A stretch of 30,031 bases of DNA from Bacteroidia bacterium (GCA_026391215.1 JAPLDX010000096.1:1-30031); one strand, 5' to 3'; counted from the stretch's first letter, positions 8,645-28,687 are shown. Notes: generated by a model from the sequence alone, not told the origin. Made by a program: numbers and translations.

Positions 8645-8660
8645 CATCAATTATTCCAAT

Positions 8661-9197: not shown

Positions 9198-9222
9198 CGC
9201 TGAGGCGATCGGGTCTTTACAG

Positions 9223-10935
9223 TCAGAGACCTGTTTTTTCAATTATCAATTTGGCTGCCATCAGATGGTCAGCTTCAGATACTTTAAATATAACAGGATC
9301 CGTAAGTCCCCATTTTTTTATTACATCTTCAATATAAGTATCCCGGACAGTTATCAGGATATTGTTTTCTGAGGATATAATTAATTTCTGAAAACATCCG
9401 GCCCACCCTTTATTATCAAGTTCAAGGGTGCCAATTTCATCGATTACAACCAGCTTTTTCCCATGCTGTTTTTCCGGACTCAGAATGGCTGTTCCTGTTT
9501 CAAGTCCTATCTGGTTTATCCGGAATTTCCCGATTTTCTCAATACCGGTATTTTCATCACGTCTCAGAAAAATATATGTGTTATTTGTCTCAATATCAAT
9601 AAGATCATAGCCCATGATTTGGGAATCTGCAATAATTTTTTTAGCTAGAATTCCTCCGACAGGCAAGTTATTCTTTTTGAGTTCATCGGTTATTTTTTGT
9701 GTAAAGGTTGTTTTGCCTTCATTTTTTGAGCCGGTCACAATAAATATTTTTTGAAAGAACTTTTCTTTTTTTCTTAACTCAGATAGCTTAATGTTAGCAT
9801 GTGAAAGAACATTGTAAAAAACTGATACCGGATTTTTGATAAGACTTTTGAAATCGGGAATACTGGCAATAAAGTCAGGCAGGCTCTCAACCGAAAGTTC
9901 CAGAGCCAGAGGTAAATTTTTAAAAGAAGTCTTGTAGAAGAAATTCCTGATCCTGGGATTATATAGTTCAGTGCCGATTCCCGAGAAACCCACAATTATT
10001 ACTGCGGCCCTGAAATTCATCTGTATCCCTGTCAGGAGTCCGTTAATAAGTCCGCTTTTACCCTCCTGTACCGTTGAAAAAGCAAATGCAGTAATAAGAG
10101 TGATGAGAACGAAAACAATCCAGAATTTTGGTCTGGAAATCCTTCCCAGTGCATTTCTATATCTGAACGCCCAGATGACGATAATACCTGTTATTGATAT
10201 GCTCCAGGCTATCCAGGATGTAAAGTTCAGTAATATGAATGATCCGATGATCAGCAATATGTCTGCAAAAAGCCAGGTAATTGAATAATTGAATTCTTTT
10301 TTTGTTTTGTTCTGTGGCACGAAAGAAGATCTGTTTTCTGCACCGGCTAATACTGCAGGAGGCTGTTTTAGTAGTTTCCTGCCGACTCTTATCCCTATTA
10401 TGGCAGCAAGAAAGCCAAACAAAGCGTATAAAATAAGTAAGATGATTATTGGCAGCCAGACAATATCAGTCTCCAGGTTAAGCTGTTTCTGGGCAAATTT
10501 CAGCAGGTCGGTATAAACCCCTACTATATCTGATCCATAGAAAATAATATATTTAATAATTTTCTGAACCAGGTTCCAGGACATGGCTGCCATGGCTCCC
10601 AGAATATATCCGGGATAGGTTCTGCCCAACACCCTGACAGACAGTTCAATCAGGAGACCTTCAGTGAAAATGGCTATCACCGGTCCGAAGATTATCGCGC
10701 TTGGCGACATTGTTTTCATGATGGCGCAGATCAGTCCTGCGCGCCAGAAAAGCCCTTTCTCAGTCCATGTGTAGCTGATTGAAATAAGTATTATAATACC
10801 TATTGCTGTCAGAATGTTACCGCTGAATGGTACACGGAGATTATGAAGAAAGCTGCCAAGAACAATCTCTGATGCTGCCCAGATTGTCCCGATAATTGAA
10901 GCCTTAATCCATTTCTCACTTAGTTCCTGCTTCAT
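9223..10935 (-). CDS. Multi-TM membrane protein fused to a C-terminal THEP1/NTPase_1-type P-loop NTPase
   Basis: About 9 TM helices in the first ~320 aa. The C-terminal domain has Walker A GSKNEGKTT, GGIL, GYDL and VIDEIG, characteristic of THEP1-like NTPases. Confidence 0.8.
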   Translation of the reverse strand: MKQELSEKWIKASIIGTIWAASEIVLGSFLHNLRVPFSGNILTAIGIIILISISYTWTEKGLFWRAGLICAIMKTMSPSAIIFGPVIAIFTEGLLIELSVRVLGRTYPGYILGAMAAMSWNLVQKIIKYIIFYGSDIVGVYTDLLKFAQKQLNLETDIVWLPIIILLILYALFGFLAAIIGIRVGRKLLKQPPAVLAGAENRSSFVPQNKTKKEFNYSITWLFADILLIIGSFILLNFTSWIAWSISITGIIVIWAFRYRNALGRISRPKFWIVFVLITLITAFAFSTVQEGKSGLINGLLTGIQMNFRAAVIIVGFSGIGTELYNPRIRNFFYKTSFKNLPLALELSVESLPDFIASIPDFKSLIKNPVSVFYNVLSHANIKLSELRKKEKFFQKIFIVTGSKNEGKTTFTQKITDELKKNNLPVGGILAKKIIADSQIMGYDLIDIETNNTYIFLRRDENTGIEKIGKFRINQIGLETGTAILSPEKQHGKKLVVIDEIGTLELDNKGWAGCFQKLIISSENNILITVRDTYIEDVIKKWGLTDPVIFKVSEADHLMAAKLIIEKTGL

Positions 10936-11737
10936 AATCTCTTATAATACAGATCTTTTGTGCACAATATTCAAACAGGTGGAAGCCTCCTCCGGCCTCA
11001 CTTATAACATCAAATAATATATCAGGTTTTGTAATCCGGGTAGCTCCAATAATATTTACCTTGTTTGCAAACAGAATATCCGGAATGACACTACCTGAGG
11101 GTCCTACGACTATAACGACAGCTTTATCAGGGATGGCAGCCAGTAAGTTGTCAATAGTATTATTTACCAGTGTTAAGCCTGTTATAATAATGATGTCAGA
11201 ATCAGGGAACACCTTCCTGTAATCATCAGCGGGAACATAGAATTGTTTTTGATCTTCGCCAAGGGCATTCTCATTCAGCTCAAGAACAAAAAGCTTGTTG
11301 TTGGTTTCAGAAATTCTGCTGATATATGACTGAAATGCGCCGACGATAGTAATAGTTTTCTTTTTGTCCAGATCCAAAAGATCAATCGGGTCACTGTTTT
11401 CCAGAATTTTATAATTACCGGATGAAATGATTTTGGATGAAATTGCATTCAGACAGGCAATTTTTAAAGTAGTTATCGTACCGGATTTTTTTTCTGTTTC
11501 AAACAGGCTATAGACTCTTTGTCCTCTGATTTTTAGCGGCGTAAAGTCGCCGTAATCCCGCATGGGTTTTTTACAATACTGATGATTATCAGTATAAGTG
11601 GATGATACCCCGCAGCTGCCGTCAGAAAGCCTTACGGCAGTCATGGAGATTCCTATCCTGACATCAGCAATTGTAAGATTTTCTATCCTGTCCCCATACC
11701 AGCTGTTAAGCAAATTTAAAGTCTGCTCAATGATCAT
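10916..11737 (-). CDS. DUF364/DUF4213 family protein (Rossmann-like, putative metal or cofactor binding)
   Basis: Motifs DVRIG..TAV, ACLNA, VGAF, LELN, ITGLTLVNNTIDNLL and VGPS. It overlaps the downstream NTPase-fusion gene by 20 bp. Confidence 0.85.
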   Translation of the reverse strand: MIIEQTLNLLNSWYGDRIENLTIADVRIGISMTAVRLSDGSCGVSSTYTDNHQYCKKPMRDYGDFTPLKIRGQRVYSLFETEKKSGTITTLKIACLNAISSKIISSGNYKILENSDPIDLLDLDKKKTITIVGAFQSYISRISETNNKLFVLELNENALGEDQKQFYVPADDYRKVFPDSDIIIITGLTLVNNTIDNLLAAIPDKAVVIVVGPSGSVIPDILFANKVNIIGATRITKPDILFDVISEAGGGFHLFEYCAQKICIIRDYEAGTK

Positions 11738-11844
11738 AAATCTCCCTATAAATCATATGCTAAATAAATAAATGGATTTTTTCTTTTATCTGCTTTAAAT
11801 CATACCTTTTTTAATTCCAGCCTGACATAAAATTATCCCTTCTT

Positions 11845-12219
11845 TCACCTACCTGCTTTTGCCTTTTCAAGATTCTCTTTAATCCTGAATTTTACAATTT
11901 TAGATATGAGGCTAAGCGGGAGAGGTTTATCAGACAGAAACTGGATTGAACCTTTTCCGGTCTTATAACCTGCCAGCTCTTTTTGAAATGCCTTGATCCC
12001 TGATGATGTCGGGTAAAAACCAATGTGATTAGTCTGCGCCGCAAAATATACCAGAATACCTTTCAGCGTGAAAGCGGGCATCTGATAGCTGATCTTTTCT
12101 TCGGCATCAGGTGCAGCTTTTTTTATTGTGGTTCTGATCTCCCTAAGCTTAATTTGAATATGATCTGGAAATTGTGCTATGTACTCGTCAACATTATCTG
12201 GAGTTCTTGTTGCTCTCAT
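11845..12219 (-). CDS. DUF1801 (YdhG-like) protein
   Basis: VDEYI...APDAEEKISYQMPAF...HIGFYP...KGSIQF...LP. Confidence 0.9.
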   Translation of the reverse strand: MRATRTPDNVDEYIAQFPDHIQIKLREIRTTIKKAAPDAEEKISYQMPAFTLKGILVYFAAQTNHIGFYPTSSGIKAFQKELAGYKTGKGSIQFLSDKPLPLSLISKIVKFRIKENLEKAKAGR

Positions 12220-12258
12220 GAATATTTCTAATTTAATTCAAACTTACATTTCAGACAG

Positions 12259-12744
12259 CTAACTCTGTGGACGCATAAAACTGATCCGGATTATTGCCAA
12301 TCCAAGCTGAGAGCTCAGGGTATTAAGTTCTTTCACGCAAGATTGGTATGAATTACATTTTATTACAGGCATAATTTGCTTATTGTCAGAGCTATATAAA
12401 TAGATCCTGATATCTTTATAGTGAATACTGACTGGCTGGGTACCCCGGATATATCCCATAAATCCTCTGTGATGTTGTTCTAATCCTAATTTCATGTCAG
12501 GCTTTATATCAATCCATTTACCGACAGGGATGATCCCGAAGAAGTTGTCGGAGAACTTGATCTTCTTATTGTCGCTGTCAATGATGGAGCTGGTCGTAGA
12601 AAAAGAAGCGAAAGCTCCAACGACAGCTATAACCAGGCCAAACCAGGAATAAAATGTTGCTATTAGTCCTCCCAGGAAAATAAAGAAGCCAGTAGAAGAT
12701 CCGAAAGGGCCAAATGTTTTATCTAATTTGTTCTTAATTATCAA
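12259..12744 (-). CDS. Hypothetical protein with 2 N-terminal TM helices
   Basis: 161-aa ORF whose TTG start overlaps the purC TGA stop, with two hydrophobic segments. Confidence 0.7.
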   Translation of the reverse strand: MIIKNKLDKTFGPFGSSTGFFIFLGGLIATFYSWFGLVIAVVGAFASFSTTSSIIDSDNKKIKFSDNFFGIIPVGKWIDIKPDMKLGLEQHHRGFMGYIRGTQPVSIHYKDIRIYLYSSDNKQIMPVIKCNSYQSCVKELNTLSSQLGLAIIRISFMRPQS

Positions 12745-13574
12745 AGGAAGATATTTACAAAATCAGCGGCCGAAACCTGGTTTCTGTTTTTAATCGTTTT
12801 CTTGCCGTCAGCGAATTTAGTTACCGTACATTGTTTATAGAGGTCGCAGTCGCCATTCTTATCAGGATAATATCCCTTGCATACGCGCAATACATCAGGG
12901 GAAATTTCGTCAATAAGGACAATTTTCCCGTCCCCGTATTTCAGCCTGCCTAATTCGAACTTGCCATCAATTACATGGAGATTCTTTGATGTAAACTCGT
13001 TGGAAACGATTTCGGCAATGTTCTTTACCAGCTCTACGCTCTGCGCTATTTCATCTTTACTCATGGCTCCTGTTGCTTCCAGTGCTTCCATGGTAATTAG
13101 GATGTCACTATCTCCCTTTGTCCATACTTCAACCACTTTGTGAAGATTCTTGCAGGGTTTCACAAAAGGGTATCTTCTCCAGAAACTGCCAGTTGCGTTA
13201 TTCCTCCAGGTAAATTCAAGATTCGACAGTGGTGCGGAGCCTGGAAATTCGGGTGATTCCACTGCCATGGACAGAGGTATGGCAGGTTCCACAATCATCT
13301 CATTATCCTTGATCGTATCGATGTAATGAGATGGAATACCCTTCTCTTTCAACAGTTTAAAGAAATGTGTGGCAAACCTGCAGGCAACAGCACCCTTACC
13401 GGGTATATCGCCTACAACGGTATCGTATCCGGGATCAAAGACAATTTTCCCGTTTTCAATATAGCCAGTCGCTCTGTCTGTAAAGACAAACCGGTACTTT
13501 CCAGCATAAGCTCCTTCTGTTATGTTAAATACATCTTTCGATTTTCCGCGATATACAAGATTCTTTTCTGCCAT
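12741..13574 (-). CDS. purC: SAICAR synthetase (PurC), divergent; start placed at MAEKN
   Basis: Motifs YRGKSKDVF, FTDRATG, GKG, IPSHYI, E..WRNNATGS..RRY, DGKFELG and DEISPD..R. The 18 extra upstream residues in the ORF track overlap a pseudogene remnant. Confidence 0.85.
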   Translation of the reverse strand: MAEKNLVYRGKSKDVFNITEGAYAGKYRFVFTDRATGYIENGKIVFDPGYDTVVGDIPGKGAVACRFATHFFKLLKEKGIPSHYIDTIKDNEMIVEPAIPLSMAVESPEFPGSAPLSNLEFTWRNNATGSFWRRYPFVKPCKNLHKVVEVWTKGDSDILITMEALEATGAMSKDEIAQSVELVKNIAEIVSNEFTSKNLHVIDGKFELGRLKYGDGKIVLIDEISPDVLRVCKGYYPDKNGDCDLYKQCTVTKFADGKKTIKNRNQVSAADFVNIFL

Positions 13575-13617
13575 ATGTATTATAGTTTTAATTATATGTA
13601 AATATAAGCTTCCCTCT

Positions 13618-13752
13618 CCATCCTGCAAACATTTTTGCTGCCCGGTTATCCTATTTATCGTATCCTTTATTGAATAACAGGAATAAAGCTACAGCGCAGA
13701 ATGCTCCGACAAACACATTTCTCATCCCGATGTGGTAATAAAGACTGATAGA
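13618..13752 (-). pseudogene. Internal fragment of a DUF998-like membrane protein gene
   Basis: The minus strand reads SISLYYHIGMRNVFVGAFCAVALFLLFNKGYDK*DNRAAKMFAG, resembling the remembered SISxYYxxxMRxxFVGxLCAxxxFLxxYxGYDxxDN family motif. It has an in-frame TAG at 13651-13653 and no start. Confidence 0.65.
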
Positions 13753-13763
13753 TTTTGTTACAG

Positions 13764-14129
13764 TCAGTTGTTTTCATTTTTGCGTACTTCTTCTAATCTG
13801 TTTTGAGCATCAGGATCTATAGCAAAGTGCTTCTTAAGGTTATCACATGCATAATCACTGCAATATGCGCAATTTGTCATGTTTTTCAGGATAGCACATT
13901 TTCTGATCTCACAATCGGCGCATCCTGTGAACAATCTTCCCTTACTGACTTTGCATCCATCGCAGTCAGTAATTATCTCAGGCTTGGGTGTTGTTCCATA
14001 GATTTTAGAAAGTTCTTCAGCAATCATAACTCTCATTTCAACCTGTTTAGTAATATTTGTTTCAAGTGTTGCCAGGTGAATAGGGCAACTGTCACATACC
14101 AGACCGCAATATGCTAATATTGTATTCAT
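13764..14129 (-). CDS. DUF3795 family Cys-rich protein
   Basis: AYCGLVCDSCP...CDGC...CADCEIRKCA...CAYCSDYAC. Confidence 0.88.
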   Translation of the reverse strand: MNTILAYCGLVCDSCPIHLATLETNITKQVEMRVMIAEELSKIYGTTPKPEIITDCDGCKVSKGRLFTGCADCEIRKCAILKNMTNCAYCSDYACDNLKKHFAIDPDAQNRLEEVRKNENN

Positions 14130-14222
14130 AATTTCAATCTAAACCTTCAAGTAAAATAGTATCACACTTTGCTGAATTAAGCCTGTGTTTCAATATTATT
14201 TCTTATTTAAGTTTCCTGGTTT

Positions 14223-14389
14223 TTAGTTTGCTGCCTTGCCCAATACAAAAATCATCCACTGTGCAAAGAAATTATTTTCGGCAGATCTCTGTACGCCTGA
14301 TAATATGTATTTGGGGATTCCAGCTTAGAATAGGAATAAGCACGTGCCAGATTGCTATAGGTGTTTTCAAATCGTAAAGCAGAAGTCAT
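14223..14389 (-). pseudogene. Internally deleted class I SAM-dependent methyltransferase gene
   Basis: ATG at 14389 gives MTSALRFENTYSNLARAYSYSKLESPNTYYQAYRDLPKIISLHSG*, resembling the N-terminus 'YSKLEFPxTYYLAYRDLPxII' of a methyltransferase family. It is joined out of frame to WMIFVLGKAAN*, resembling that family's C-terminus 'PWxIYVL'. Confidence 0.6.
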
Positions 14390-14419
14390 CTGGCAACAGG
14401 AGAATTATCAGTGTTATAA

Positions 14420-15487
14420 TTAGTACTTATTTTTCTTCATATCTTTCTTATAGTTTTTGATCATCTTCCCAAATTCCCTGTCTTTTTTATGTTTTTCAGC
14501 AACAGTAGTCTGGAATCTCCGTTGTTCTTTCTGCAGTCTTTTAAAATTGTCAAGTGAATCAATATCTATTGTTCCCTTATTCAGAGCTTCCATTACAGCG
14601 CAACCTTTTTCATTAATGTGCTGGCAATCCGGAAATTTGCATTTTAATGATAAGCTGTATATCTCCTGAAATGTTGTTTTGATGCCTTCAATATTATCAG
14701 TTATACCAAGCTCTCTCATTCCCGGAGTATCAATTATGATTCCGCCATTTTCCAGGATAAACAGCTCCCTGTGATCCGTTATATGCCGTCCCTTGTTTGT
14801 ACTTGTACTAATATGTCCGGTTTTCAGAATATCCTTTTTCAATAAGTTATTTATAAGGGTTGATTTTCCTACTCCGGAAGATCCTACGACACAATATGTT
14901 TTGCCTTTCTGGAGAGCGTCAAGGATTTGATCAAGTCCTTGTCCTGTCACGTTGCTTAGAAGAATATATTTTATTTCTTTTTCCCTTGTTTTAAGTTTTT
15001 TTATAGAGTCATTAATGATGTTTTCGGTGGAAAGGTCAATCTTGCTTATAACTAAAACAGGTTCAATGTTAGCTGAATAACAGATAGATAAATATCTTTC
15101 CAATCTGTTGATGCTGAAATTATTATCGATAGATTGGATAATAAAAGCAACATCAATATTTGTTGAGATTATCTGTTTTTCTCCATATTGTCCGACAGAT
15201 TGCCGTTCAAGTATTGACTTGCGGGGCAGAATTTTATGAATAATTGCAAAATCTGAATCATACTTTGTAATGTTGACCCAGTCTCCAACAGCAGGGAAGT
15301 CGGCTCTTGAGAGGGCAGAAAATCTTAGATTTCCTGTTATTTCTGCCTCAAGTTCTTTATCACCTGTTGAAACGATATATCTCTCACGATGTTCCTGGAT
15401 TATTCTTCCAAGTGAGAACTCTGACAGGTTGTTTTCCTTCAGATAGGTTATTATATCGTCAGTAAGTCCTAAATCTTTTAATGTCAT
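14420..15487 (-). CDS. rsgA: Ribosome small subunit-dependent GTPase A
   Basis: PAVGDWV, SKIDL, GSSGVGKSTLIN, GRHIT, DTPGMRE and the zinc finger CKFPDCQHINEKGC. Confidence 0.95.
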   Translation of the reverse strand: MTLKDLGLTDDIITYLKENNLSEFSLGRIIQEHRERYIVSTGDKELEAEITGNLRFSALSRADFPAVGDWVNITKYDSDFAIIHKILPRKSILERQSVGQYGEKQIISTNIDVAFIIQSIDNNFSINRLERYLSICYSANIEPVLVISKIDLSTENIINDSIKKLKTREKEIKYILLSNVTGQGLDQILDALQKGKTYCVVGSSGVGKSTLINNLLKKDILKTGHISTSTNKGRHITDHRELFILENGGIIIDTPGMRELGITDNIEGIKTTFQEIYSLSLKCKFPDCQHINEKGCAVMEALNKGTIDIDSLDNFKRLQKEQRRFQTTVAEKHKKDREFGKMIKNYKKDMKKNKY

Positions 15488-15538
15488 GATTGTTAAGCAG
15501 TAAGATTTCTTTTTCGATTAAACTAGGTGTAAATCTAT

Positions 15539-16117
15539 TCAGGATCTTGCCAGTTTAATAACTTGTTTAACGAAAGCAGTTTTCCCTTCAGTATATTTTT
15601 CTCTGTCATTTTCATATTTAATTGCCAGTTTCATTTTCAGAGCTGCATATTCAATAGCTGTTTTAGCGTTGGCAATCAAATAGTCGCGGAACACGATTTC
15701 ATCCCAGTCACCGGAATACCTCACATGAATGTGAAATTTCTGCTCAGAATTATCAGTTCTTGAATATCCTTTGGCTAGCATGATGTGAGGCGGGGGATTT
15801 TCGGGTTTTGGAATATACTGATATTTAATCTTATGCAGATTGCTTAAAAGTGAATCAAGGTCTGTTTCATTCTTGATCTCAATTAAGATGTCAATTATTG
15901 GCTTTGCGCAAATCCCGGGCATAGCAGTACTTCCGATATGTTCTATTCGTAAAATTGTGTCTGTTCCTGATGCTTGAAGAATATTATGTTGTTCTACAAG
16001 AAATCTTTCTCTCCAAACAGGATTATGGTCAACCAGTTTAATTGGAAACAGTTTTCCAAGTTCTCCAACAGTCAATTTGTTAAAATCTTCACCACTAACT
16101 TTAGGATCGAAGTTCAT
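15539..16117 (-). CDS. GrpB/UPF0157 family nucleotidyltransferase-fold protein
   Basis: EHIGSTAMPGICAKPIIDI, HIHV, FRDYL, Y..LK and YTEGK. Confidence 0.9.
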   Translation of the reverse strand: MNFDPKVSGEDFNKLTVGELGKLFPIKLVDHNPVWRERFLVEQHNILQASGTDTILRIEHIGSTAMPGICAKPIIDILIEIKNETDLDSLLSNLHKIKYQYIPKPENPPPHIMLAKGYSRTDNSEQKFHIHVRYSGDWDEIVFRDYLIANAKTAIEYAALKMKLAIKYENDREKYTEGKTAFVKQVIKLARS

Positions 16118-16130
16118 GATATCTCTTAGA

Positions 16131-17351
16131 CTATAATAATGGTGCTAATCCAAATTCTATGGTTTTTAAACTATCTGCTCTTATAACGACAAATTTTGCC
16201 TGATCTGTTTTCTTAAAGAAGGCTTCCTGGGTTTCATACGGTATTTCTTCAACAGGAGTATTATTAACTGAAATAATTTTATCATCTATTCTTAATCCTT
16301 GCTTTTCAGCAGCGCTATTTTCAGTTAAACTCGCTACTATCCATCCTCCCATAGTTTTACACCTATCTACATAAGAAAATCCAAGTCTGTCAAAAATATA
16401 TGGTTCATTAAATTTTTTGTTTGGCTTTAAATAAAGATTACTGTTTCTGAAATCAAATATTATATCAAAGCGATCCAGGATATTACTTCCCAGTATTCCC
16501 GAATATCCTTCACTTGCCAGTACCCCGGACCAATCTGCACTATATGACATATTAACATTTTCCAGACGATAATCAGAAATCTGCACAGAATCAGCTATAA
16601 AATCATAACCCGATGATTCACCGCCAACTCCGCCATACTTGGTATAATAACGGACTTTGCGTTCAATTTTGTCAGTCAAATTATATGTTTTTGCGACATA
16701 ACTTGTAAAAGTACTGAACGGAGTCCCTGTATCAATATGAAAATTTCCTGTAATTGTTGTTGAATCATTGATTTTTACAATAAGCGGGACATAAAAGTTA
16801 TGACCATGTTTCCCCATCGGAACAATTTGATAATCAGAAATATCGGTAGAATCAATAGTTTTAAAGATGTTAATATATTCTTTTGCATAGTTAATTTCCA
16901 GAACACTTTGCAGAAAATATCTTGTTCCGATCAGTCCGTCAATATAATCACCGCCTACTGGTTTTAGCTTAAGAACTGGCACAAGGGATGTTCGATAGAT
17001 GAAATTTCCAAAAGTAAAACTGACACTATCTTTAATTATAGTAATTTTTTGAAATGCATTTCCTATTCCATATATTTTGGTTTGGTAAGAATTATTATAT
17101 TTGAAGTTATTGGTATTATGAAAGATACTATCAATATATAGATTATCGCCACCTGTATCAAGTAAAAAATTTCCCTGAACACTATCAACATTCCCTTTTA
17201 TATATATATAATCGACATATACGATAGGAACAGCATTTTTGGGCAAGGCAATACTATCAGCAATAGAATCATCTTTACCTTCTTTACCAGATAGATTCTT
17301 GCATCCTGATAACAATATAATTGCAACTCCTATGATAATTATTTGTCTCAT
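16131..17351 (-). CDS. Lipoprotein with two aspartyl-protease domains and a C-terminal PDZ domain; start placed at MRQII
   Basis: Lipobox LLSGC, LLDTG...GLIG, HIDTG...GILG, and PDZ motif SAAEKQGLRIDDKIISVN. Confidence 0.85.
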   Translation of the reverse strand: MRQIIIIGVAIILLSGCKNLSGKEGKDDSIADSIALPKNAVPIVYVDYIYIKGNVDSVQGNFLLDTGGDNLYIDSIFHNTNNFKYNNSYQTKIYGIGNAFQKITIIKDSVSFTFGNFIYRTSLVPVLKLKPVGGDYIDGLIGTRYFLQSVLEINYAKEYINIFKTIDSTDISDYQIVPMGKHGHNFYVPLIVKINDSTTITGNFHIDTGTPFSTFTSYVAKTYNLTDKIERKVRYYTKYGGVGGESSGYDFIADSVQISDYRLENVNMSYSADWSGVLASEGYSGILGSNILDRFDIIFDFRNSNLYLKPNKKFNEPYIFDRLGFSYVDRCKTMGGWIVASLTENSAAEKQGLRIDDKIISVNNTPVEEIPYETQEAFFKKTDQAKFVVIRADSLKTIEFGLAPLL

Positions 17352-17452
17352 TTTTGACTTGTGCAGATGTAACAAATTCTGAACTGATCCATTATCACGA
17401 TGAAGAATTCGGATTTGAGATGCTAAAGATAGAAAATCTTATAATTGCTATT

Positions 17453-18022: not shown

Positions 18023-18046
18023 GTTTGCAATGTCTATTTAAAAATA

Positions 18047-19486: not shown

Positions 19487-19487
19487 A

Positions 19488-20522: not shown

Positions 20523-20533
20523 TTACGATAGTT

Positions 20534-22171
20534 TTAGCAAAGTCCAAAAATTTTCATATCTTCTTCTACTGTTGTGATAGTTTGCACCCCAAACTTTTCC
20601 TGAACAACCTTAAGAACATTAGGTGTCATAAAACCAGGCAGGGTAGGACCAATATGTGTATTCCTGATTCCAAGATACAATAACGAAAGATGAACAATTA
20701 TTGCTTTTTGTTCATACCAGGCAATATTGAAAACGATCGGTAATTTATTGATATCGTCCAGGTTGAGAACCTCTTTCAGCTTAAGCGCAACGAATGCCCA
20801 TGAATATGAATCATTGCACTGTCCTGCGTCCAGCACTCTTGGAATGCCATTTATGTCTCCTAAATTCAATTTGTTGTAGCGGTATTTTGCACATCCCGAA
20901 GTCAGGATTACAGTGTCTTTGGGGAGTTGTTTCGCAAATTCAGTGTAGTATTCGCGGCTTTTTTGACGTGCATCGCAACCCGACATTACAACAAGCCTTT
21001 TTATCGCACCAGAGTTCACAGCTTCCAGAATTTTATCAGCAAGTGATAAAACCTGATTATGCGCAAAGCCGATTGTAATTTCACCATTTTCAATTTCAGT
21101 CGGAGGTTGACATTTAATAGCAATTTCTATAATTTCCGAAAAATCTTTTTGGCCGTTTGCCAGCTTCCTGTCAATGCGTTTCCATCCAGGCATTCCGGTA
21201 GCACCTGTCGTGAATATCCTTCCATTATAGGTTGTTGCCTTTCGCGGCGGGACTAGACAGTTTGTTGTAAAAAGGACAGGGCCATTAAAAGTTTCAAATT
21301 CTTCCAGCTGCCGGTGCCATGCATTGCCATAATTACCAACAAGATGCTTATACTTTTTCAATGAAGGATAGGCATGTGACGGCAGCATCTCGGAATGCGT
21401 GTAAACGTCAATTCCTTTTCCTTCAGTTTGGATTAAAAGCTGTTCCAGATCTTTCAGATCATGACCGCTGACGAGAATGCCGGGTTTTTTACCGACTCCG
21501 ATATTAACTTTTGAAATTTCAGGATTGCCAAATGTTGACGTGTTCGCTTTGTCAAGTAATGCCATGACTTTTACCCCATTTTCACCAGTCCTCATAACCC
21601 AGTCCAGCATACTATTTAAATCCATCGGTTTGGTGATCATTACAAGAGTCTCTTCCATAAAGTCATAGATATCCTGTTGCTCAAAACCAAGATTAAAAGC
21701 GTGCTCAGCGTATGCAGCCATTCCCTTAATGCCAAATAAGGCATATTGCTTTAATGCACGGATATCTTCATTGGTGTCATAGAATAATGTGCTTACATGT
21801 TTAGCTTTTTCATAAAACTCTGAAATGTCTGCTCCATTCCAGGAAATTGAGTCATGCTTTTCGCTGATCGGAACCTTATTCTTCAAATTATCCCGAAAGC
21901 CATTACAATCCTTTATTGCCTGAATTATTGCTTTATCATCAAAATTGGCATTAGTGATGGTCATAAACAGGCAATTTGTAATATGCTTGCTTTCGGCATT
22001 TGTAACAAGCCCTTTTTTTCGGGCTTCGATGGTTGTAAATGCAAGTCCCTGACAGGCAAAAACCAATAAATCCTGAATATTAGCGATTTCTTCTTTTTTA
22101 CCGCAGACTCCATTAATTGTACAGCCGGTATTTTTTGCTGTTTCCTGACATTGGTTACAAAACATACTCAT
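20534..22171 (-). CDS. hcp: Hybrid cluster protein (hydroxylamine/NO reductase)
   Basis: [53 protein letters not shown] and WYEQKA. Confidence 0.97.
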
Positions 22172-22183
22172 AATATTTAAGTT

Positions 22184-22696
22184 TTAAAGGTTAATCTTTT
22201 TACTTATTCCCTCAATATAGGGTGAAAATTTTTCTCCGTCCTGAGAAAACTCAAACCTTGTATTAACCGTTTCAGTGTCAATCAATTTATAGACAAGACG
22301 AAAAACAGGTCTGTTTGGGGCTTTATCACTGGTCAATACGATTTCCTTATCCGAATAAGAGATTGTATAATTTATTGTATGCCCTTCATTATCAAAGTAG
22401 ATAGCCTTGTTTGGGCTGTCTGTAGAATCCAAATATACTATCATTAAGTCTTCGTGAACCACCGTGGATTTGCCTTCAGTTGAAGGATATTCAGAATGGC
22501 TTTTTCTTATAAGAACTTTGCTGTCAAGATCAAGAGAGAATGAAAATGTTCCACCTCCTGATCCCGGTTTTCCTGATCCTTCACCACTCCAGTCCCCAAT
22601 TAGCCAATTCCATTTATCCCATGCAGAACTTTGCTGCCCGGAGCAAATGTTTATAATCAGGGACAGAGCAAGAGTCAATAATATTTTATACTTCAT
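22184..22696 (-). CDS. Secreted hypothetical protein, probable lipocalin/THAP4-like beta-barrel
   Basis: Signal peptide, WLIGDWSGEG (GxW) motif, AIYFDNEGH, and an alternating beta-strand pattern. Confidence 0.65.
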   Translation of the reverse strand: MKYKILLTLALSLIINICSGQQSSAWDKWNWLIGDWSGEGSGKPGSGGGTFSFSLDLDSKVLIRKSHSEYPSTEGKSTVVHEDLMIVYLDSTDSPNKAIYFDNEGHTINYTISYSDKEIVLTSDKAPNRPVFRLVYKLIDTETVNTRFEFSQDGEKFSPYIEGISKKINL

Positions 22697-22730
22697 TTGT
22701 TAAAGTAAGTAAATATTCCAGTCAGTAAGA

Positions 22731-22761
22731 CTATTTAATGCATTTCTAATAGTCAGGGTGC
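22731..22761 (-). repeat. Decayed attC-like left arm
   Basis: The minus strand reads GCACCCTGAC-N14-TAAATAG with the gene's TGA stop inside the core, the same layout as the 27597-27658 site. Confidence 0.35.
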
Positions 22762-23700
22762 ATCAACAATATGATTGTTTTCTTTAATTTCTTTTATGGC
22801 CGCGATCAATCCTTCTTTATACGACGGATATTCCGGTTTCCAGTCCAACATTCTTTTTGCTTTTGCATTTGAAACCTTACAATCCATTCGAATTACTTCA
22901 TAGAAGTCTTTTCCTAATACAAGTTTCATAATAAATGCGGGAATATGTCCGGGTTGCTTTTTGTTCATTAATTCAGCCATATAGAATGTGAAATCCTTCT
23001 GGCTTACCGCTGTATCGTCTGCAATAATGAACTTTTCGCCAATTGGCAGCTTCTCAATGGCTTTAATTATTGCGGATGCAGCATCGCCTGCATATATGTT
23101 TGGAATACAATTATCACCCTTGCCAATAACACTGCTGCGACCTTTCTCCATCATATTGTACATAAAACGGAAGAGTCCGCCATTACCATATATTTTCCCA
23201 TACAGAAGTTGTACGACCTCAGGTTTTCCGGACTTTATAGCCTGATTAACCATTTCATCAGTATCCTTTCCAATTTCAGTCAGCCCGATCCTTAATATTG
23301 GCCATGTTTCATCTGCTATTTCATCACCTGTTGTCTTGAAGCTTGTTCCTGAAGGTAAAATTATCGGGATATTAAAGTGAACTGCCAGATCCATGGAATT
23401 GCGAAAAAAATCATTTGTTTCTTTTCTCAATTCTTCTTTACGCTTCTTAGTCATCCTATGCCCGGGTTTGACACCTGGCATAGCGAGCAGCACAATTATA
23501 TCCAGCCTGTCTGGCAAATTCTTCTTAAAATCTTGTGGATTTCTTATATCACCTAAAATGCCAAAAGCGCCTGATTTCTTTATTCTTTCGATTTTGTCTG
23601 CAGAGCGGGTCAGAACATATACTTCATTCCCGTTTTCGATTAATCTCGGAAGCAAATAACTTCCTACTAATCCGGTTCCTCCAATTACGAATATTTTCAT
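22753..23700 (-). CDS. NAD-dependent epimerase/dehydratase family protein
   Basis: GGTGLVG, IYG, DAA, and VSNAKAKRMLDWKPEYPSYKEG. Confidence 0.9.
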   Translation of the reverse strand: MKIFVIGGTGLVGSYLLPRLIENGNEVYVLTRSADKIERIKKSGAFGILGDIRNPQDFKKNLPDRLDIIVLLAMPGVKPGHRMTKKRKEELRKETNDFFRNSMDLAVHFNIPIILPSGTSFKTTGDEIADETWPILRIGLTEIGKDTDEMVNQAIKSGKPEVVQLLYGKIYGNGGLFRFMYNMMEKGRSSVIGKGDNCIPNIYAGDAASAIIKAIEKLPIGEKFIIADDTAVSQKDFTFYMAELMNKKQPGHIPAFIMKLVLGKDFYEVIRMDCKVSNAKAKRMLDWKPEYPSYKEGLIAAIKEIKENNHIVDAP

Positions 23701-23708
23701 AAGGTGAG

Positions 23709-24128
23709 TTATTTGTTTATTTCAAATTCAATAAGTTCAATCGGAGCGCCATTATGTTCAATCATCGTTACTCTTATTCCCTCAAAATTTGATGCTGGTT
23801 CTGAAATCACTTTAAAATCATGGCTGGCAAGTTCGTGTTCTATATTCTTGACTTCAAACGCAATGTGTGGAACCGTCCGGATCAATTTACTGACAGGACT
23901 CTCTTTTTCAAATCTCATCCATTCAATTCCAAAAGGGCTGGTATTAAAGCCGGAGACATAAAATTTAAATTTTGCTAAATAGGTTTCCCCGGGTATTTTC
24001 TTTTTCGTGGGAATTCCTATATGATGATATTTCCATCCCCATTTAACTATCGATAATGGGAGTTCATGATCCAATCTTAGTTTATTCACTTTATTGTCAG
24101 AGTTGACCGAAGGCTTTTTCATAATCAT
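23709..24128 (-). CDS. VOC/glyoxalase-like protein
   Basis: YHHIGIP, IEWMRF, PHIAFEV and PIELIE (paired His/Glu metal ligands). The start is uncertain. Confidence 0.75.
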   Translation of the reverse strand: MIMKKPSVNSDNKVNKLRLDHELPLSIVKWGWKYHHIGIPTKKKIPGETYLAKFKFYVSGFNTSPFGIEWMRFEKESPVSKLIRTVPHIAFEVKNIEHELASHDFKVISEPASNFEGIRVTMIEHNGAPIELIEFEINK

Positions 24129-24670
24129 TTATGTGTCAATGTAATATCATCAAAAAATACCGTACCAGTAGTACTATTAAGATATACTAAAAAGACATAT
24201 ATTTTATTAGTATTAACAGACAAGTCTGAAAGGACAACACTGTATTCAGCCCAATCAAAAGTGCCGCTGATATAACCCATATCCTGAGTTGTCACAAATT
24301 GATAAGTGCTATCCGCATCAGCCCTGATTGCAATGGATATTCCATTTCCAGATAGATTAACACCTTTTATTCTTGCAGTCAGAGTCAAATCCTCACCAAA
24401 TGGCATTTCGCCTTCATATAATTGTCCCCAGTACCAGTAATTTGCATAATCAAGAGTCGTTCTGTCTATTTTTAAAGAATAAGATGTCGAAAATGAATCC
24501 TCATTAGTCCGAGATGCATTAAAACCACTGCTGGTTCCATTACTGAACCAGACTGACATATTTACTGATTCCAAATCAGTATTTACTAATAGCTGAGTGG
24601 GAATTTTATCTTCCTTTTTACAGGAGATAAGTATGCAAAAGGCCAGGATGATTAGTGATACTTTTTTCAT
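24125..24670 (-). CDS. Lipoprotein with a galactose-binding-like (CBM4/9-type) beta-sandwich
   Basis: Lipobox LISC, L.N..LE, GTFDWAEYSV and GTVFFDDITL. Confidence 0.7.
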   Translation of the reverse strand: MKKVSLIILAFCILISCKKEDKIPTQLLVNTDLESVNMSVWFSNGTSSGFNASRTNEDSFSTSYSLKIDRTTLDYANYWYWGQLYEGEMPFGEDLTLTARIKGVNLSGNGISIAIRADADSTYQFVTTQDMGYISGTFDWAEYSVVLSDLSVNTNKIYVFLVYLNSTTGTVFFDDITLTHK

Positions 24671-24708
24671 ATGATTCTATTTTAGAAGTGGTGCAAAAAC
24701 TAAGGAAA

Positions 24709-24742
24709 CCTGATTTACTTTATTGATCGTGTCAGGCGGCGG
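24709..24742 (-). repeat. attC-like left arm (R''-L''), right arm lost
   Basis: Immediately after the stop, the minus strand reads CCGCCGCCTGAC-ACGAT-CAATAAAG-TAAATCAGG, which aligns with CGCTAAC-AGCGC-CAATAAAA-TAAATAGG at 27631-27658. Confidence 0.65.
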
Positions 24743-25894
24743 TTATTCTTTTAGTTTTATATTAATCGTGAAAATGTTGTTTATACGATTACTTATTTTA
24801 ATGTCAATTATCCTTTGTTCATTTATTTCTAAGATTTCCTTGTAAAATGCAACTCCCTTTTCTATTGTTTTTTTATTTATAACAAGTAAGTACTTATTCT
24901 CAAAATCTGAAGTTGTACTATAACTAATTTCGCTCATTTTCCCTTTTATTCTGGAATGAACTATATCTGTTAATTTTTTTATCACAAATTGTTTAGAATA
25001 GATTAAAACAATACCATTTGTGGCATCCGATTTTGGAAATTTCTCTTTAATCAATTCTTTATCTCTAAGAATTTCTAACCATGCAATTTCAATCCAATCA
25101 AGATTTTCAAGACTGTTTTTATCACGGATGTCATTGCTTAGTATTTCTTTTTCATCTAATATATAAACGGGAGGATTAATTTGAGCAAGACGCTGCTGGT
25201 AAGTCCCTTTAGCCTCTTCATACTTTATTGAGATATTATTTTTTAAATCAGGTTCCAGATCGTTATATTTCCAGACTATTTGATTTTCAGATTCAGTAAA
25301 GTTGTCGGGAGTAACTTTTAATAATAACTCTTTATCAATATTCTTTAAATTGACAATTATCTCAGCTGTATCAATTGTTCCATACCAGCCAGATCCGGTA
25401 CTAAGCAAATAATCAAACTTAGAATAAAGATTGTTCTTAACTAATCCATGAGGTAGTGAGTATGAAACAACAATCACTTTTATTTCATTCTCGTCGAAAT
25501 ATGTATCCCATAAATACCAGGGTTTTTTATTATTATCGATAATGGCTAAGTTTATAGAATCAGGAGTAAAAAAAACAATATTGTTTATTTTTTCCCCATT
25601 CTCATATACATTAATTGGATTAAATTTCAAGCTATTATAACCATTAGAATAATAGTTCATATTTGGGTAACCAATTTGAATTTTTTGAGCTTTCCCTTTG
25701 TTATGCAGTCTGAAGAAACAGTGAACAAATGAACTATCAATGGTTAAATCCACAACAACCTTCTCATAAGTCATTTTTATCTCTGCAGGTTCAGTCATCG
25801 ATATCCCTGTTGCTTGAATTGGAGAAGGGGCTATGTCTGCTTCAATACTTAAAGAATATAAAAACAGCAGAGTAACAATTATTAAGTACTTCAT
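24743..25894 (-). CDS. Secreted protein, DUF4424-like N-terminal domain
   Basis: Signal peptide, then IKMTYEKV...F...N...IGYP and FDYLLSTGSGWYGTI. Very AT-rich. Confidence 0.65.
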   Translation of the reverse strand: MKYLIIVTLLFLYSLSIEADIAPSPIQATGISMTEPAEIKMTYEKVVVDLTIDSSFVHCFFRLHNKGKAQKIQIGYPNMNYYSNGYNSLKFNPINVYENGEKINNIVFFTPDSINLAIIDNNKKPWYLWDTYFDENEIKVIVVSYSLPHGLVKNNLYSKFDYLLSTGSGWYGTIDTAEIIVNLKNIDKELLLKVTPDNFTESENQIVWKYNDLEPDLKNNISIKYEEAKGTYQQRLAQINPPVYILDEKEILSNDIRDKNSLENLDWIEIAWLEILRDKELIKEKFPKSDATNGIVLIYSKQFVIKKLTDIVHSRIKGKMSEISYSTTSDFENKYLLVINKKTIEKGVAFYKEILEINEQRIIDIKISNRINNIFTINIKLKE

Positions 25895-25926
25895 CGGCAG
25901 ATATTTTTCTTTCTGATTGTTATTTC

Positions 25927-25962
25927 CCTTAGTAAATATTTCATGCCGTTGTCAGTGGCTTG
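25927..25962 (-). repeat. Decayed attC-like left arm
   Basis: After the stop, the minus strand reads CAAGCCACTGAC-AACGG-CATGAAATATTTACTAAGG. The core position matches the other sites but the inner part is degenerate. Confidence 0.4.
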
Positions 25963-26955
25963 TTATTTAGTTATTAAAACATATTCATATGGAAGTAAAT
26001 CCCCAATTCGCTGAGTTATCATCTGACCTTCCCAGCTTATCCCGGATGCATCAAAATATCCAGAACCATCAAAGAAAACGCGGTCTTTAAGAAATATAAT
26101 GTAACTTTTAACATCCTTTGAATAGTAAGTAATAATTAAATTTTCCCTGTAAGATAGATACCTCTTATGGTCATTCTCTTCCAATACTATTTTCTCATAG
26201 TTCAGGCTTTCTTCCGAGGAATTTTGTACAACAAATCCGGTGGCATTCAGATTATCTGCCCATAATTCTCTGAAAAAGTGCATTCTTGATCCCATGTAGG
26301 CATTTCTTCTATGTCGTTCATAAGATTGTTTTCGAATCTCTTCAGTGGTCATATCTTCGTTGAAAACAATATTCCCTTTGAAAAAGAAAGTCTTCTCCTT
26401 TCTATCATACTCAAATTTATCCAGAAAATATGTGATTTTATATCCCAGAGCTCTATTTTCAATTTGAAGCGGTTTAGAAGCAAATGCTTTCAATGTGTCT
26501 TTGTCAGATTTATAATTGAAAGTAATATCGTTTTCATTAATTATCTTGCACCAATGGGCAATTGAGGTTGTTCCAAGAAATACATTCTTGAAAAGTTCAA
26601 GATTTGATCTCCTCTCACGAGCGAGTGATTTGGCATTGATGACAACCTCACTAAGATTATATACTTTACGCGTTAAATATATTATAAGTGGATTATTACT
26701 TGAAAAGCTATTTACGGTAGATGAATTATAACCTACTGCGCTAATTGATAGCGGCATGGAAGCATTTTTTGATACATCAATCTGAAAGTTCCCATTTTGA
26801 TCCGAATAGGTTCCAACAAATGTTCCATTAAAATAAACAGTTGCATAAGCTATCTTATCTTCTGTTTCCTTATCCAGAATAGTCCCTTTTATAATTTGAT
26901 TATAAGCAACTAAAAAGTGATTAACCAGCAGTACTAATAAAACCAGCTTCTTCAT
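25963..26955 (-). CDS. Carboxypeptidase-like regulatory (CarboxypepD_reg-like) domain protein
   Basis: Signal peptide, IKGTILDKET...YATVYF..T..GT.SD.NG.F...ISAVGY...L...VYNLSEVVI, and GSRMHFFR. Confidence 0.85.
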   Translation of the reverse strand: MKKLVLLVLLVNHFLVAYNQIIKGTILDKETEDKIAYATVYFNGTFVGTYSDQNGNFQIDVSKNASMPLSISAVGYNSSTVNSFSSNNPLIIYLTRKVYNLSEVVINAKSLARERRSNLELFKNVFLGTTSIAHWCKIINENDITFNYKSDKDTLKAFASKPLQIENRALGYKITYFLDKFEYDRKEKTFFFKGNIVFNEDMTTEEIRKQSYERHRRNAYMGSRMHFFRELWADNLNATGFVVQNSSEESLNYEKIVLEENDHKRYLSYRENLIITYYSKDVKSYIIFLKDRVFFDGSGYFDASGISWEGQMITQRIGDLLPYEYVLITK

Positions 26956-26968
26956 AAGAGATCTTTTA

Positions 26969-27001
26969 CTAATTTATTTTAGCATTGACCGTGTCAGGTT
27001 T
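26969..27001 (-). repeat. attC-like left arm downstream of the toxin gene
   Basis: The minus strand reads AAACCTGAC-ACGGT-CAATGCTAAAA-TAAATTAG. It shares CCTGACACGRTCAAT (14 of 15 identical) with the 24709-24742 copy. Confidence 0.6.
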
Positions 27002-27006
27002 AGATT

Positions 27007-27306
27007 TTATTTAGTGATCTTACTGTCAGGATATTGTCTGGTATCCCAGATTGTATGGATTACTATCTTATCCCTGGTAATTTCGTAGTATATAATAAAA
27101 TCATCTATTATCAATCCCCTGATGTCATCTTTTGTTGTTTTGAGTCCTATTTCAGGGAATTTAATTATTATTTTTACTTCTCTGTGAAGTAAACGATATA
27201 AATTAATTGAACAGGTTTTGCTTTTATTTCTCTCGATATGGAACTCGAGGATACCATAAAGTCTTTTCTTAGCCCTGTTTGACCAAATTATCTTGCTCTT
27301 AGCCAT
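27007..27306 (-). CDS. RelE/ParE family type II toxin
   Basis: IIWSNRA...L..I...FPEIG...IRGLII.DFIIYY....IVIHTIWDTRQ. Confidence 0.9.
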   Translation of the reverse strand: MAKSKIIWSNRAKKRLYGILEFHIERNKSKTCSINLYRLLHREVKIIIKFPEIGLKTTKDDIRGLIIDDFIIYYEITRDKIVIHTIWDTRQYPDSKITK

Positions 27307-27524
27307 TGTCTTACTTCTTTATCCAGGACACTATTTTCAAGAAACATACCTTGCTGAATTTCTTTTTTTGAAGTAATAATGTCATCAAGTTGATTGGGAG
27401 TCAGCTGGATGACACCAGATTCAGTTTTTGTATCAAGGATTGTTTTTAATGCCTTGAGAAACGATATGTCGTTTATTTCAGAGATCCGGTGAATTAAAAG
27501 TGTTCTAAGCTCAGATGCTGTCAT
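27288..27524 (-). CDS. Cognate antitoxin (addiction-module type)
   Basis: 78-aa ORF upstream of and overlapping the toxin, with the pattern 'L...I..I.D...L..L...LT..Q...I.....I..G......WL'. Confidence 0.8.
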   Translation of the reverse strand: MTASELRTLLIHRISEINDISFLKALKTILDTKTESGVIQLTPNQLDDIITSKKEIQQGMFLENSVLDKEVRQWLRAR

Positions 27525-27596
27525 GATAGCGAATGTATGTTTAAAAGATAACTAAACCCAGGAAATTTTCAGTCAGGATAGAATGTACAAAATAAA

Positions 27597-27658
27597 AGCT
27601 AACGGTCAGGTAATGAAGTTAGCAGACAAGCCTATTTATTTTATTGGCGCTGTTAGCG
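27597..27658 (-). mobile_element. Near-complete attC-like recombination site (62 bp)
   Basis: The minus strand parses as R'' CGCTAAC (contains the TAA stop), 5-nt spacer AGCGC, L'' CAATAAAA, 21-nt centre, L' TTCATTA, spacer CCTGACC, R' GTTAGCT. GCTAAC/GTTAGC pair perfectly and the L boxes pair imperfectly. Confidence 0.7.
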
Positions 27659-28660
27659 GTTATTTTTCTTAAAAGAATATTCATATGGGAGCTGGTCCGC
27701 AATGCGTTGATTCGCCATCTCCCCATCCCATCTTAATCCAATTCCATCAAAAATTCCATTCTTATTAAAGTAGACACTGTCTTGAGTAAAAATAATATGG
27801 GTTACAGGAATTTTCTTGCTGTAGGAAATTTCCAGAGACCCCTTATTCTTAAGGTATTTTGAAAGGCTATCTGTTTGAATTACAAGATCGTCATAGCAAA
27901 GTTTATTTTTTTTATTATCTAAAACGGAATATCCCGATAAATCCAAGTCATTTTCCCAGAGCGTTCTGAAAAAGTGCATTCTCGAACCCAAAAATGCGAT
28001 TTCTCTTCTTCCTTCAAACCTCTGAGTGCGTTTTTCCCGGGTTATTGAATCCTCAAGGAACATAATATTCCCATAAAAATAAAAGTAATCTGTCTGTGCT
28101 GAATATTCAAACATATCCAGGTAATAAGAAATTTTATACCCTAATGCCTTATTCTCAATTAAGAGAGGTTTCAAAGAAAAAGCAGTGATTGTATCGCCAA
28201 AAGAGCTGTATTTAAACATTAAGTCATTTTCATTTATTATTTCGCATTTTTGAGCATTCGAAGTCTTCCCGATAAAAACCTCTCTAAAAATTTTAATATT
28301 AGCCTTTCTCTCTCTTCTTATTTTTGCATTGCCCTTAGTACTTATGACAACATCATTTAATTCAAATATCTTGGGTTTCAGGTATATTCTATAATATTTA
28401 CCGGATGAAAGATCAGGTACAGCATTAGAATAGTATCCTAATGCACTAATTATTAATGGCATTGATTTGTTCTTTGAAATATCTATTTCAAAATTGCCAT
28501 TTTGATCTGAATGAGTACCTACAAATGTTCCATTGAAATAGATTGCAGCAAAATTTATGGGATTATTCGTAGATAGGTCCTGAATAGTCCCTTTAATGAT
28601 CTGAGAATAAGTTATTGTACAGAAATTGATAAGTACTAATGCTAATGTGATCTTCCTCAT
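27653..28660 (-). CDS. CarboxypepD_reg-like domain protein, paralog of 25963-26955; start placed at MRKIT
   Basis: Signal peptide MRKITLALVLINFCTITYSQ. Shares YFNGTFVGTxSDQNGNF, ENxALGYKI, GSRMHFFR and QRIxDxLPYEY with the paralog. Confidence 0.85.
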   Translation of the reverse strand: MRKITLALVLINFCTITYSQIIKGTIQDLSTNNPINFAAIYFNGTFVGTHSDQNGNFEIDISKNKSMPLIISALGYYSNAVPDLSSGKYYRIYLKPKIFELNDVVISTKGNAKIRRERKANIKIFREVFIGKTSNAQKCEIINENDLMFKYSSFGDTITAFSLKPLLIENKALGYKISYYLDMFEYSAQTDYFYFYGNIMFLEDSITREKRTQRFEGRREIAFLGSRMHFFRTLWENDLDLSGYSVLDNKKNKLCYDDLVIQTDSLSKYLKNKGSLEISYSKKIPVTHIIFTQDSVYFNKNGIFDGIGLRWDGEMANQRIADQLPYEYSFKKNNR

Positions 28661-28675
28661 AACGGGCAGGTTAAA

Positions 28676-28687
28676 ATTACCGCTGAC
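28676..28687 (-). mobile_element. Core (R'-type) site at the 5' boundary of the first cassette
   Basis: The minus strand reads GTCAGCGGTAAT, ending 15 bp before the ATG. It matches the reverse complement of the gene's 3' end (GTTAGCGGTTAT) at 10 of 12 positions. Confidence 0.6.

Follow-up and report, generated by a model that had tools for sequence, protein, structure and literature searches.

The definition of integrons, and the searches made for them, rest on the IntI integrase and on short attC sites, which are ~57–141 nucleotides (nt) in length. Chromosomal integrons, and clusters of attC sites lacking integron-integrases (CALINs), hold co-oriented cassettes of one or two genes with unrelated functions, toxin-antitoxin and defence-type genes among them, and their cassettes end in imperfect hairpins with an outer ...AAC/GTT... 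and inner boxes that covary. In Treponema denticola and in some non-proteobacterial phyla the integrase is co-oriented with its array; integrases of this type retain the additional domain of IntI, and the length of their attC sites is the usual one. The idea of gene modules flanked by Xer-type sites is likewise known (dif modules, Acinetobacter plasmids), dif sites being short, double-stranded and ~28 bp long. Here we report on a stretch of 30,031 nt from a Bacteroidia bacterium, hereafter the window, which is the whole of contig C13 in a 135-contig, 3.39 Mb draft assembly (G000). A preliminary description, made from the sequence of the window alone, had proposed that most of it is a decaying, integron-like cassette array that has no integrase.

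Our analyses make it likely that the 22.7–28.7 kb part of the window is a decayed, recombinase-less remnant of an array, and that the system to which it belonged is an integron-like one that is intact on another contig of the assembly, C24, and in related Bacteroidales. The proposed array stood up for ~22.7–28.7 kb; its left ~13 kb yielded one weak relic, and no site in the window is intact. A common array origin for those left ~13 kb is plausible, and the remainder of the co-oriented block (4.6–22.7 kb of 24 kb) may share this origin and be of greater age. Judged by sequence, the system appears to behave like an integron and yet fails the test for IntI. Integrons have been reported in Bacteroidota, according to two papers. 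The literature searched contained, in its accessible parts, no account of a Bacteroidales variant with a Xer-type recombinase and long sites, although an earlier description may exist.

Relics of sites in a co-oriented gene block

The minus strand carries all 23 of the long open reading frames (ORFs) within 9223–28738, and the Pfam families among them show no relation to one another, in agreement with the preliminary description. The minus-strand run begins at 4665, and its sole interruption is the lipocalin gene (blc) at 8661–9197 on the plus strand. The G+C content is 0.30–0.34 at 24–28.5 kb, versus 0.37–0.46 in the flanks. The reported lack of a tyrosine recombinase in the window was also upheld: a search of the whole assembly with the integron integrase model TIGR02249 gave no match on C13, and none of the 29 window ORFs scanned against Pfam matched a recombinase family.

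The preliminary description had named a motif on or just after five of the stop codons in the block. Taken literally, its pattern had no match genome-wide, its own sites included, and a repeat finder run on the window missed the motif. Despite that failure, a clear likeness exists among the sequences that follow the stops at 27653, 27007, and 24743. A profile built from the window's three best sites gave weak matches that clustered at the end of contig C24, and these proved to be five long repeats, each starting with CTAACACGGACAATAAAG and ending with CTTTATTGCCGGGCCGTTAG, its imperfect complement. The window motif is the 5' arm of this imperfect-hairpin site (TAAC...GTTA). Being a worn-down arm of a site family that separates cassettes behind a recombinase, the motif makes the window look like a fossil gene-capture array.

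The likeness was assessed with weight matrices of 14 and 18 nt, trained only on sites from other contigs and from the relative G001, with the window excluded. When the 14 nt matrix was run over 47 positions around each of 27 minus-strand stops, it returned p = 8e-5 at 27007, 4e-4 at 24743, and 2.4e-3 at 27653. The stop at 14420, which is absent from the preliminary list, gave p = 5e-4 (~0.015 corrected for 27 stops). Genome-wide, the 27007 site ranked 12 of all positions and was the third best outside the training sites, and the 24743 site was the second best match of the 18 nt matrix outside its training set.

The most complete of these sites is site A (27597–27660, minus strand), a degenerate site of ~60 nt with a 5' box at 27656–27643 and a 3' box at 27618–27599 that ends in GTTAG. 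It is the sole window site to keep both arms, and its 3' box ranks 22 genome-wide. The stop codon of the gene at 27653–28738 falls within its TAAC, so that the stop lies inside the site as had been described. In the lowest-energy fold of site A, GTTAGC pairs with an internal GCTAAC instead of with the outer arm. Site B (26968–26997, minus strand) is a 5' arm only (box 26997–26984, score 18.9), positioned 10 nt past the stop of a ParE-family toxin gene and 41 nt ahead of the next ATG. Site D (24689–24742, minus strand) is also a 5' arm (box 24735–24722) with its 3' arm missing; its likeness to the site family extends to 24689, the GTTTTTGCA stretch included. The match near 14420 is a possible relic, F, consisting of a 5'-arm box at 14404–14417 (minus strand, matrix score 12.0) directly after the stop of an RsgA-like gene; the L'' part of this box has a perfect complement of 8 nt at 14297–14304. 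An inner-helix pattern that seemed to match at 13648 was dropped because it has >100 matches genome-wide. The window sites are relics: their middle and 3' parts have been lost, and 5' arms of 30–55 nt remain at the stop codons.

Long hairpin sites and the linked recombinase

Contig C24 (L001) carries a tyrosine recombinase gene at L001:10110–11738, and the repeats lie downstream of it on the same strand. Five co-oriented cassettes follow the recombinase, separated by the repeats, and their genes encode a caspase, an AbiC-like protein, a trypsin/Fib_succ protein, unknown proteins, and a YkuD protein. The junction, GTTAGCGT, is situated 62 nt past the recombinase stop and is the exact complement (8/8) of the outer flank of the first repeat (ACGCTAAC). 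The contig terminates inside the fifth repeat. The YkuD-type L,D-transpeptidase cassette (L001 16942–17758) reads in two overlapping frames, 16942–17343 and 17285–17758, which may be due to a frameshift or an assembly error. Further copies of the site were found on C43, C124, and C130. On C43 (L002), positions 5029–9720 form a second recombinase-less array in this assembly, in the order methyltransferase, site, Fic protein, 5' arm, MNT-HEPN toxin-antitoxin pair, site, and alpha/beta hydrolase; two or more sites in series with no recombinase, the mark of a CALIN, are thus seen there with the sites of this family. Searches of L001, L002, and L003 with Rfam at E up to 1 placed no family on the repeats and gave only tRNA and chance matches.

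The 29 full sites in the profile are 224–413 nt in length, 16 nt of flanks included, and a few short forms of ~80–110 nt occur in G001. When 21 sites from 9 genomes were aligned, 93% of the cells paired and 15 of the 31 pairs changed on both sides, a level reached by 0 of 500 shuffles, while slid controls paired at 30–51%. The helices comprise the nearly invariant TAAC/GTTA, a covarying stem L''/L' (CAAT/ATTG, CGAT/ATCG, CGGT/ACCG), and an inner stem. The two arms show a conserved asymmetry (ACGGA opposite CCGGGCC), owing to which some bases would stay unpaired; in integrons, extrahelical bases of the attC sites set the choice of strand.

The cassette borders carry a further signal. In 21 of 29 adjacent pairs of sites from 11 loci, the 4 nt that follow GTTA in one site are complementary to the 4 nt that precede TAAC in the next (one of the 29 pairs is a false match inside the recombinase gene). 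Complementary ends were found in 24 of 812 (3%) non-adjacent pairings. Such ends are the trace expected from circular cassettes that recombined in the core, and they are not predicted by a dispersed-repeat model. The association with the recombinase is also recurrent: of the 12 loci in which sequence is available for 1.5 kb or more downstream of its gene, 10 have co-oriented sites there (G000, G177, G156, G014, G149, G018, G010, G007, L045, and L050), and two, L048 and G016, do not. Eight further recombinase loci, outside these 12, end no more than 1.2 kb past the gene and show no sites.

The C24 recombinase is 542 amino acids (aa) as its ORF reads and 507 aa in most homologues. It scored 217 bits against NCBIfam recomb_XerA_Arch (cut-off 220). 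Against integrase_gron (TIGR02249) it scored 185 bits (cut-off 265), in two stretches that skip model positions 179–243, and residues 183–249 of the integrase VchIntIA (2a3v) face only 24 residues of the C24 protein. The catalytic half is closest to archaeal XerA-type recombinases, with which the protein aligned in one piece (PDB 4a8e, 144 bits; 5hxy, 123 bits). By these comparisons the protein is a Xer-like recombinase that lacks the IntI-specific insertion and falls outside the IntI family. The IntI-type recombinase for which the preliminary description had recommended a search was not borne out, as no protein in the assembly passes the TIGR02249 cut-off.

The recombinase has an N-terminal extension of 230 aa, in which the predicted structure contains two strand-strand-helix-strand-strand-helix modules (residues 4–70 and 133–201; mean predicted local distance difference test scores of 73 and 71) joined by a disordered linker. 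Structural searches with the modules gave no convincing relative (best Foldseek E 0.1). An eIF1/YciH-like fold (best VIA Z 7.5) was not adopted, as the resemblance may reflect a common arrangement only, and the N-terminal domains of UvsW and XPB (Z 5.5–6.3) fell in the same doubtful range.

Homologues of the recombinase are numerous, with 4729 proteins at E ≤ 1e-20 among 8000 candidates scored. The best 120 are 57–94% identical to the C24 protein, and the names given to them at source are XerD or "site-specific tyrosine recombinase/integron integrase" of Bacteroidales. Within the genus, 17 of 60 other genomes have a match that begins in the first 37 residues. Records of related loci are titled as metagenome-assembled genomes of Bacteroidales, Bacteroidetes, or "uncultured Rikenellaceae". 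The closest relative, G001, is without the 507 aa recombinase and has a paralogue of ~396 aa that is 49% identical in the catalytic half. A site fragment is present directly downstream of the G001:C42 paralogue (L039 11–136 and 640–1461), so these sites may also be served by a recombinase of reduced length.

Together these features suggest how the system would work. In the intact form, a Xer-like recombinase gene precedes, in one orientation with them, an attI-like junction and then single- or two-gene cassettes, each ending in a hairpin composed of TAAC, a covarying stem, an inner stem, and GTTA. By analogy with integrons, the recombinase would recombine folded sites within the TAAC/GTTA core, and cassettes would be excised as circles and inserted at the junction behind the recombinase gene. 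In the window, the middle and 3' parts of the sites are gone, and the surviving 5' arms abut or overlap three stop codons (27653, 27007, and 24743). The window cassettes are probably now fixed in place, and the C24 recombinase is a candidate for acting in trans on the window array.

The C24 system thus resembles chromosomal integrons and CALINs in its co-oriented one- or two-gene cassettes of unrelated function, in its toxin-antitoxin and defence-type cargo, and in cassettes ending in imperfect hairpins with outer ...AAC/GTT... and inner covarying boxes, as found at the sites of C24 and of the relatives and not at those of the window. It also shares with integrons the location of the cassette borders in the core, with complementary cassette ends, the junction beside the recombinase gene, and the presence of recombinase-less clusters elsewhere in the genome. 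It differs from integrons in that the recombinase lacks the IntI insertion and has two extra N-terminal modules, in that its gene is upstream of the array on the same strand, and in that the sites exceed the attC length range; the window's own sites are too decayed to be called attC sites. The recombinase gene reads toward the cassettes, as in integrons of the Treponema denticola type. Compared with dif modules, the sites here are long structured hairpins, the cassette ends are complementary, and the arrays stand behind a dedicated recombinase with its long N-terminal extension.

The array was also sought in metagenomes. Three freshwater-sediment runs of one study contain 70–89% of its words, and may include the source sample; runs with small shares of words were excluded from the habitat inference. 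Between 687 and 2626 contigs per run matched the array in these three runs (X1–X3) and in a fourth run from another study (X4). In X1–X3 the site bins exceeded the cassette bins in summed depth by factors of tens to hundreds, and in X4 the excess was higher still. The site at L001 13229–13567 surpassed its flanking cassettes in summed contig depth by factors of hundreds to thousands in runs X1–X4. Since depth is summed over organisms, it is read only as a sign that sites of this family are common there; it suggests that such sediment communities contain a very large pool of them.

The block in relatives and alternative explanations

Parts of the left flank of the block are collinear in all five of the genus relatives examined. 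In G004 the homologues of the ORF at 3750–4598 and of the NUDIX hydrolase gene to the right of the block are 22 nt apart, and 4.6–28.9 kb is therefore an insertion relative to G004. No sites were found in the G004 block at the same place (L027). The NUDIX gene has matches in G002, G004, G006, G007, G008, G010, G012, and G013. In the last of these genomes the recombinase is 6.2 kb from the NUDIX homologue and has the polarity of the window block, although this is one case. In G001, homologues of the block genes are on at least seven contigs, with homology ending at ORF borders, and its block at the same conserved flank has six site fragments on the coding strand (E 1.5e-25 to 0.23).

Homologous cargo beside hairpin sites, the lack of which would have counted against the array in the preliminary description, was found in G001. 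The epimerase-like gene at 22753–23700 is 81% identical (249/307) to a gene on G001:C38, and the homology does not extend past the ORF ends. A full site of 337 nt ends 28 nt before the ATG of this homologue, and a short site lies 134 nt past its stop. The homologue of the 139 aa gene in the block, at G001:C19:21191–21552, adjoins a homologue of the PRAI-like gene, and relatives of the CarboxypepD_reg-like proteins are located within site arrays of G007 contigs C95 and C36. The cargo of G001:C38 is of the defence type, as in Vibrio arrays. That array (L013) includes a TPR protein of 702 aa that weakly matches a TIR domain (E 0.0079), and an AAA_15/AbiEii-like ATPase is encoded just beyond its sites (L013 stretches 2384–4492 and 7752–10037).

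Homologues of the left part of the block are, in G001, scattered or among decayed sites, and decayed sites are present on both sides of the SAICAR-synthetase-like homologue. Several genes of this part appear to be housekeeping genes and are in fact accessory. The true purC is on C117 (233 bits, versus 108 bits for the SAICAR-like gene of the window), the PRAI-like gene of the window is a second, low-scoring type, and hcp was found in 3 of the 5 genomes searched.

A number of observations weigh against an array origin for the block. No attI-like junction and no recombinase were found at its head. That C13 and C24 belong to the same genome rests on binning. Each window site is weak when taken singly: with the window searched alone, the full-site profile gave E = 0.12 for site A and 0.25 for site D, and not one of them folds into a hairpin (z = +0.22 for site D, −0.64 for site B, and −1.46 for the stretch of relic F). 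As regards the mark of a CALIN, three 5' arms and one two-armed degenerate site of the window pass the test at stop positions fixed beforehand, yet with the full-site profile they score above E = 0.1. Two of the five motif sites in the preliminary description did not hold, namely those at the stops at 25963 (p = 0.10) and 22753 (p = 0.11). The former is a weak look-alike, site C (25942–25955, minus strand), 8 nt past the stop with a best matrix score of −1.7, and the latter, site E at ~22725–22752, was likewise unsupported. In the left ~13 kb the marginal match at 14417 is the sole relic, and the full-site profile found nothing in the left half of the window. The G018 block at the same place (~30 kb) had no sites. 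In X4, some cassette stretches are without cover and many contig joints fall at site borders, with sides of <30 nt. We did not accept these as absence or excision of cassettes, as the joints may stem from the repeats.

Integron integrases can insert cassettes at secondary sites, and some of these points would suit an explanation in which single cassettes were inserted singly at such sites within a variable, island-like region, the truncated sites being off-target hybrid products and no array with its own junction ever having existed. We consider this unlikely. It would explain why junction and recombinase are missing from the head of the block, why sites survive as 5' arms only, and why the left part and the G018 block are almost or wholly site-free, but it sits poorly with the presence, inside 3 kb of a single strand, of four sites at consecutive gene ends, and with a toxin-antitoxin unit exactly between two of them. 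The many serial fragments at the same flank in G001, and the recombinase of G013, 6.2 kb from the NUDIX homologue and of matching polarity, also speak against it.

Still less probable, in our assessment, is that the motif was kept for a function at gene ends, as a terminator, an RNA-stability element, or a promoter of the next gene, and either merely resembles the arm or is a co-opted one. Nearly all of the best genome-wide matches fall within site arrays and do not mark gene ends at large, the arms show no folding, the distance to the next start varies, and Rfam placed no family on the full sites of L001, L002, and L003. In its favour, the arms sit 0–10 nt past stop codons and 41–128 nt ahead of the next start, and one truncated form is seen three times. 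The explanation that we disfavour most, and think very improbable, is that this is ordinary accessory chromosome and that the likeness of the motif is due to chance or to an unrelated dispersed repeat resembling miniature inverted-repeat transposable elements. The high E-values of the full-site profile in the window and the generally poor synteny of the genus are compatible with it; the positions, however, were chosen before any model existed and were then supported by the independent matrix (p = 8e-5 to 2.4e-3), and a repeat of this kind predicts neither complementary flanks of neighbouring sites nor linkage to one recombinase family.

The polarity proposed in the preliminary description, in which the cassettes at the right would be the youngest, is consistent with where the sites survive and with the arrangement in G013.

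Gene content of the window and wider meaning

The first gene of the block (27653–28738, minus strand) encodes a CarboxypepD_reg-like protein. Its alignments with paralogues start at residue 25–27, and its true start is likely the ATG at 28660. A second CarboxypepD_reg-like gene at 25963–26955 (minus strand) is its paralogue, with 49–50% protein identity, and a third copy is on contig C25. Between the two is the toxin-antitoxin cassette (27007–27524, minus strand), flanked by sites A and B. It consists of the ParE-family toxin gene at 27007–27306 (PF05016, E 8.6e-6, 26.7 bits versus a cut-off of 23) and an upstream ORF of 78 aa (27288–27524), without a Pfam family, that overlaps it by 19 nt; a toxin with a small overlapping upstream partner is the arrangement of type II toxin-antitoxin systems of the ParE/RelE superfamily. 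Both the duplicated cargo and the RelE/ParE pair had been recognised in the preliminary description.

The genes further to the left are also on the minus strand. A 383 aa gene without a Pfam family (24743–25894) is a candidate cassette, and an overlapping pair of 139 aa and 181 aa genes, likewise without Pfam families (23709–24670), is a candidate two-gene cassette. They are followed by two single-gene units, the NAD-dependent epimerase-like gene (22753–23700) and, from the ORF scan, a gene for an unknown protein of 170 aa (22184–22696). The left part of the variable block (4665–22171) has 18 co-oriented accessory genes by Pfam, with families that include an M48 peptidase, an ABC-2 pair, an NTPase, DUF364, SAICAR-synthetase-like, RsgA-like, GrpB, PRAI-like, and hybrid-cluster proteins, and others. 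A 22 nt inverted repeat (11666–11687 and 17428–17449), 95% complementary, has arms 5.7 kb apart, one within the DUF364 gene and the other intergenic, and related direct copies are present at 15317 and 21657.

The conserved left flank (1–4598, plus strand), with ORFs at 41–784, 973–1617, 1813–3747, and 3750–4598, marks the boundary of the variable block. The right flank (28923–29546, plus strand) contains the NUDIX hydrolase gene at 28923–29336 and a tRNA-Asp gene at 29472–29546. The 3' end of the tRNA-Asp gene (GTCCCGTCCACACCGC, 29530–29547) recurs ~190 nt downstream at 29722–29740. This repeated end resembles the scar or attachment-site pair of a tRNA-integrating element, and the stretch after it is present in several copies in G004.

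Viewed more broadly, the chances seem to us about even that freshwater-sediment Bacteroidales have an undescribed integron-like platform, with a Xer-type recombinase, free of the IntI domain and bearing two N-terminal modules, that shuffles cassettes through three-helix hairpin sites of about 220–410 nt; of this platform the window would be the end state, where sites are reduced to eroded stubs and captured genes have turned into ordinary chromosome. A working look-alike of the integron, differing in the architecture of its recombinase and with sites of three times the length, would extend the known range of structure-specific recombination. If true, capture of the integron type emerged, or went its own way, outside the lineage of IntI, and such arrays escape the integron finders now in use. 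It would also reveal a large hidden pool of cassettes, as the site family matches hundreds to thousands of contigs in sediment metagenomes, and among the cassettes are genes of the defence type (caspase, AbiC-like, Fic, MNT-HEPN, and ParE). The window itself would then be a rare view of captured cassettes as they lose their sites and are absorbed into the chromosome.

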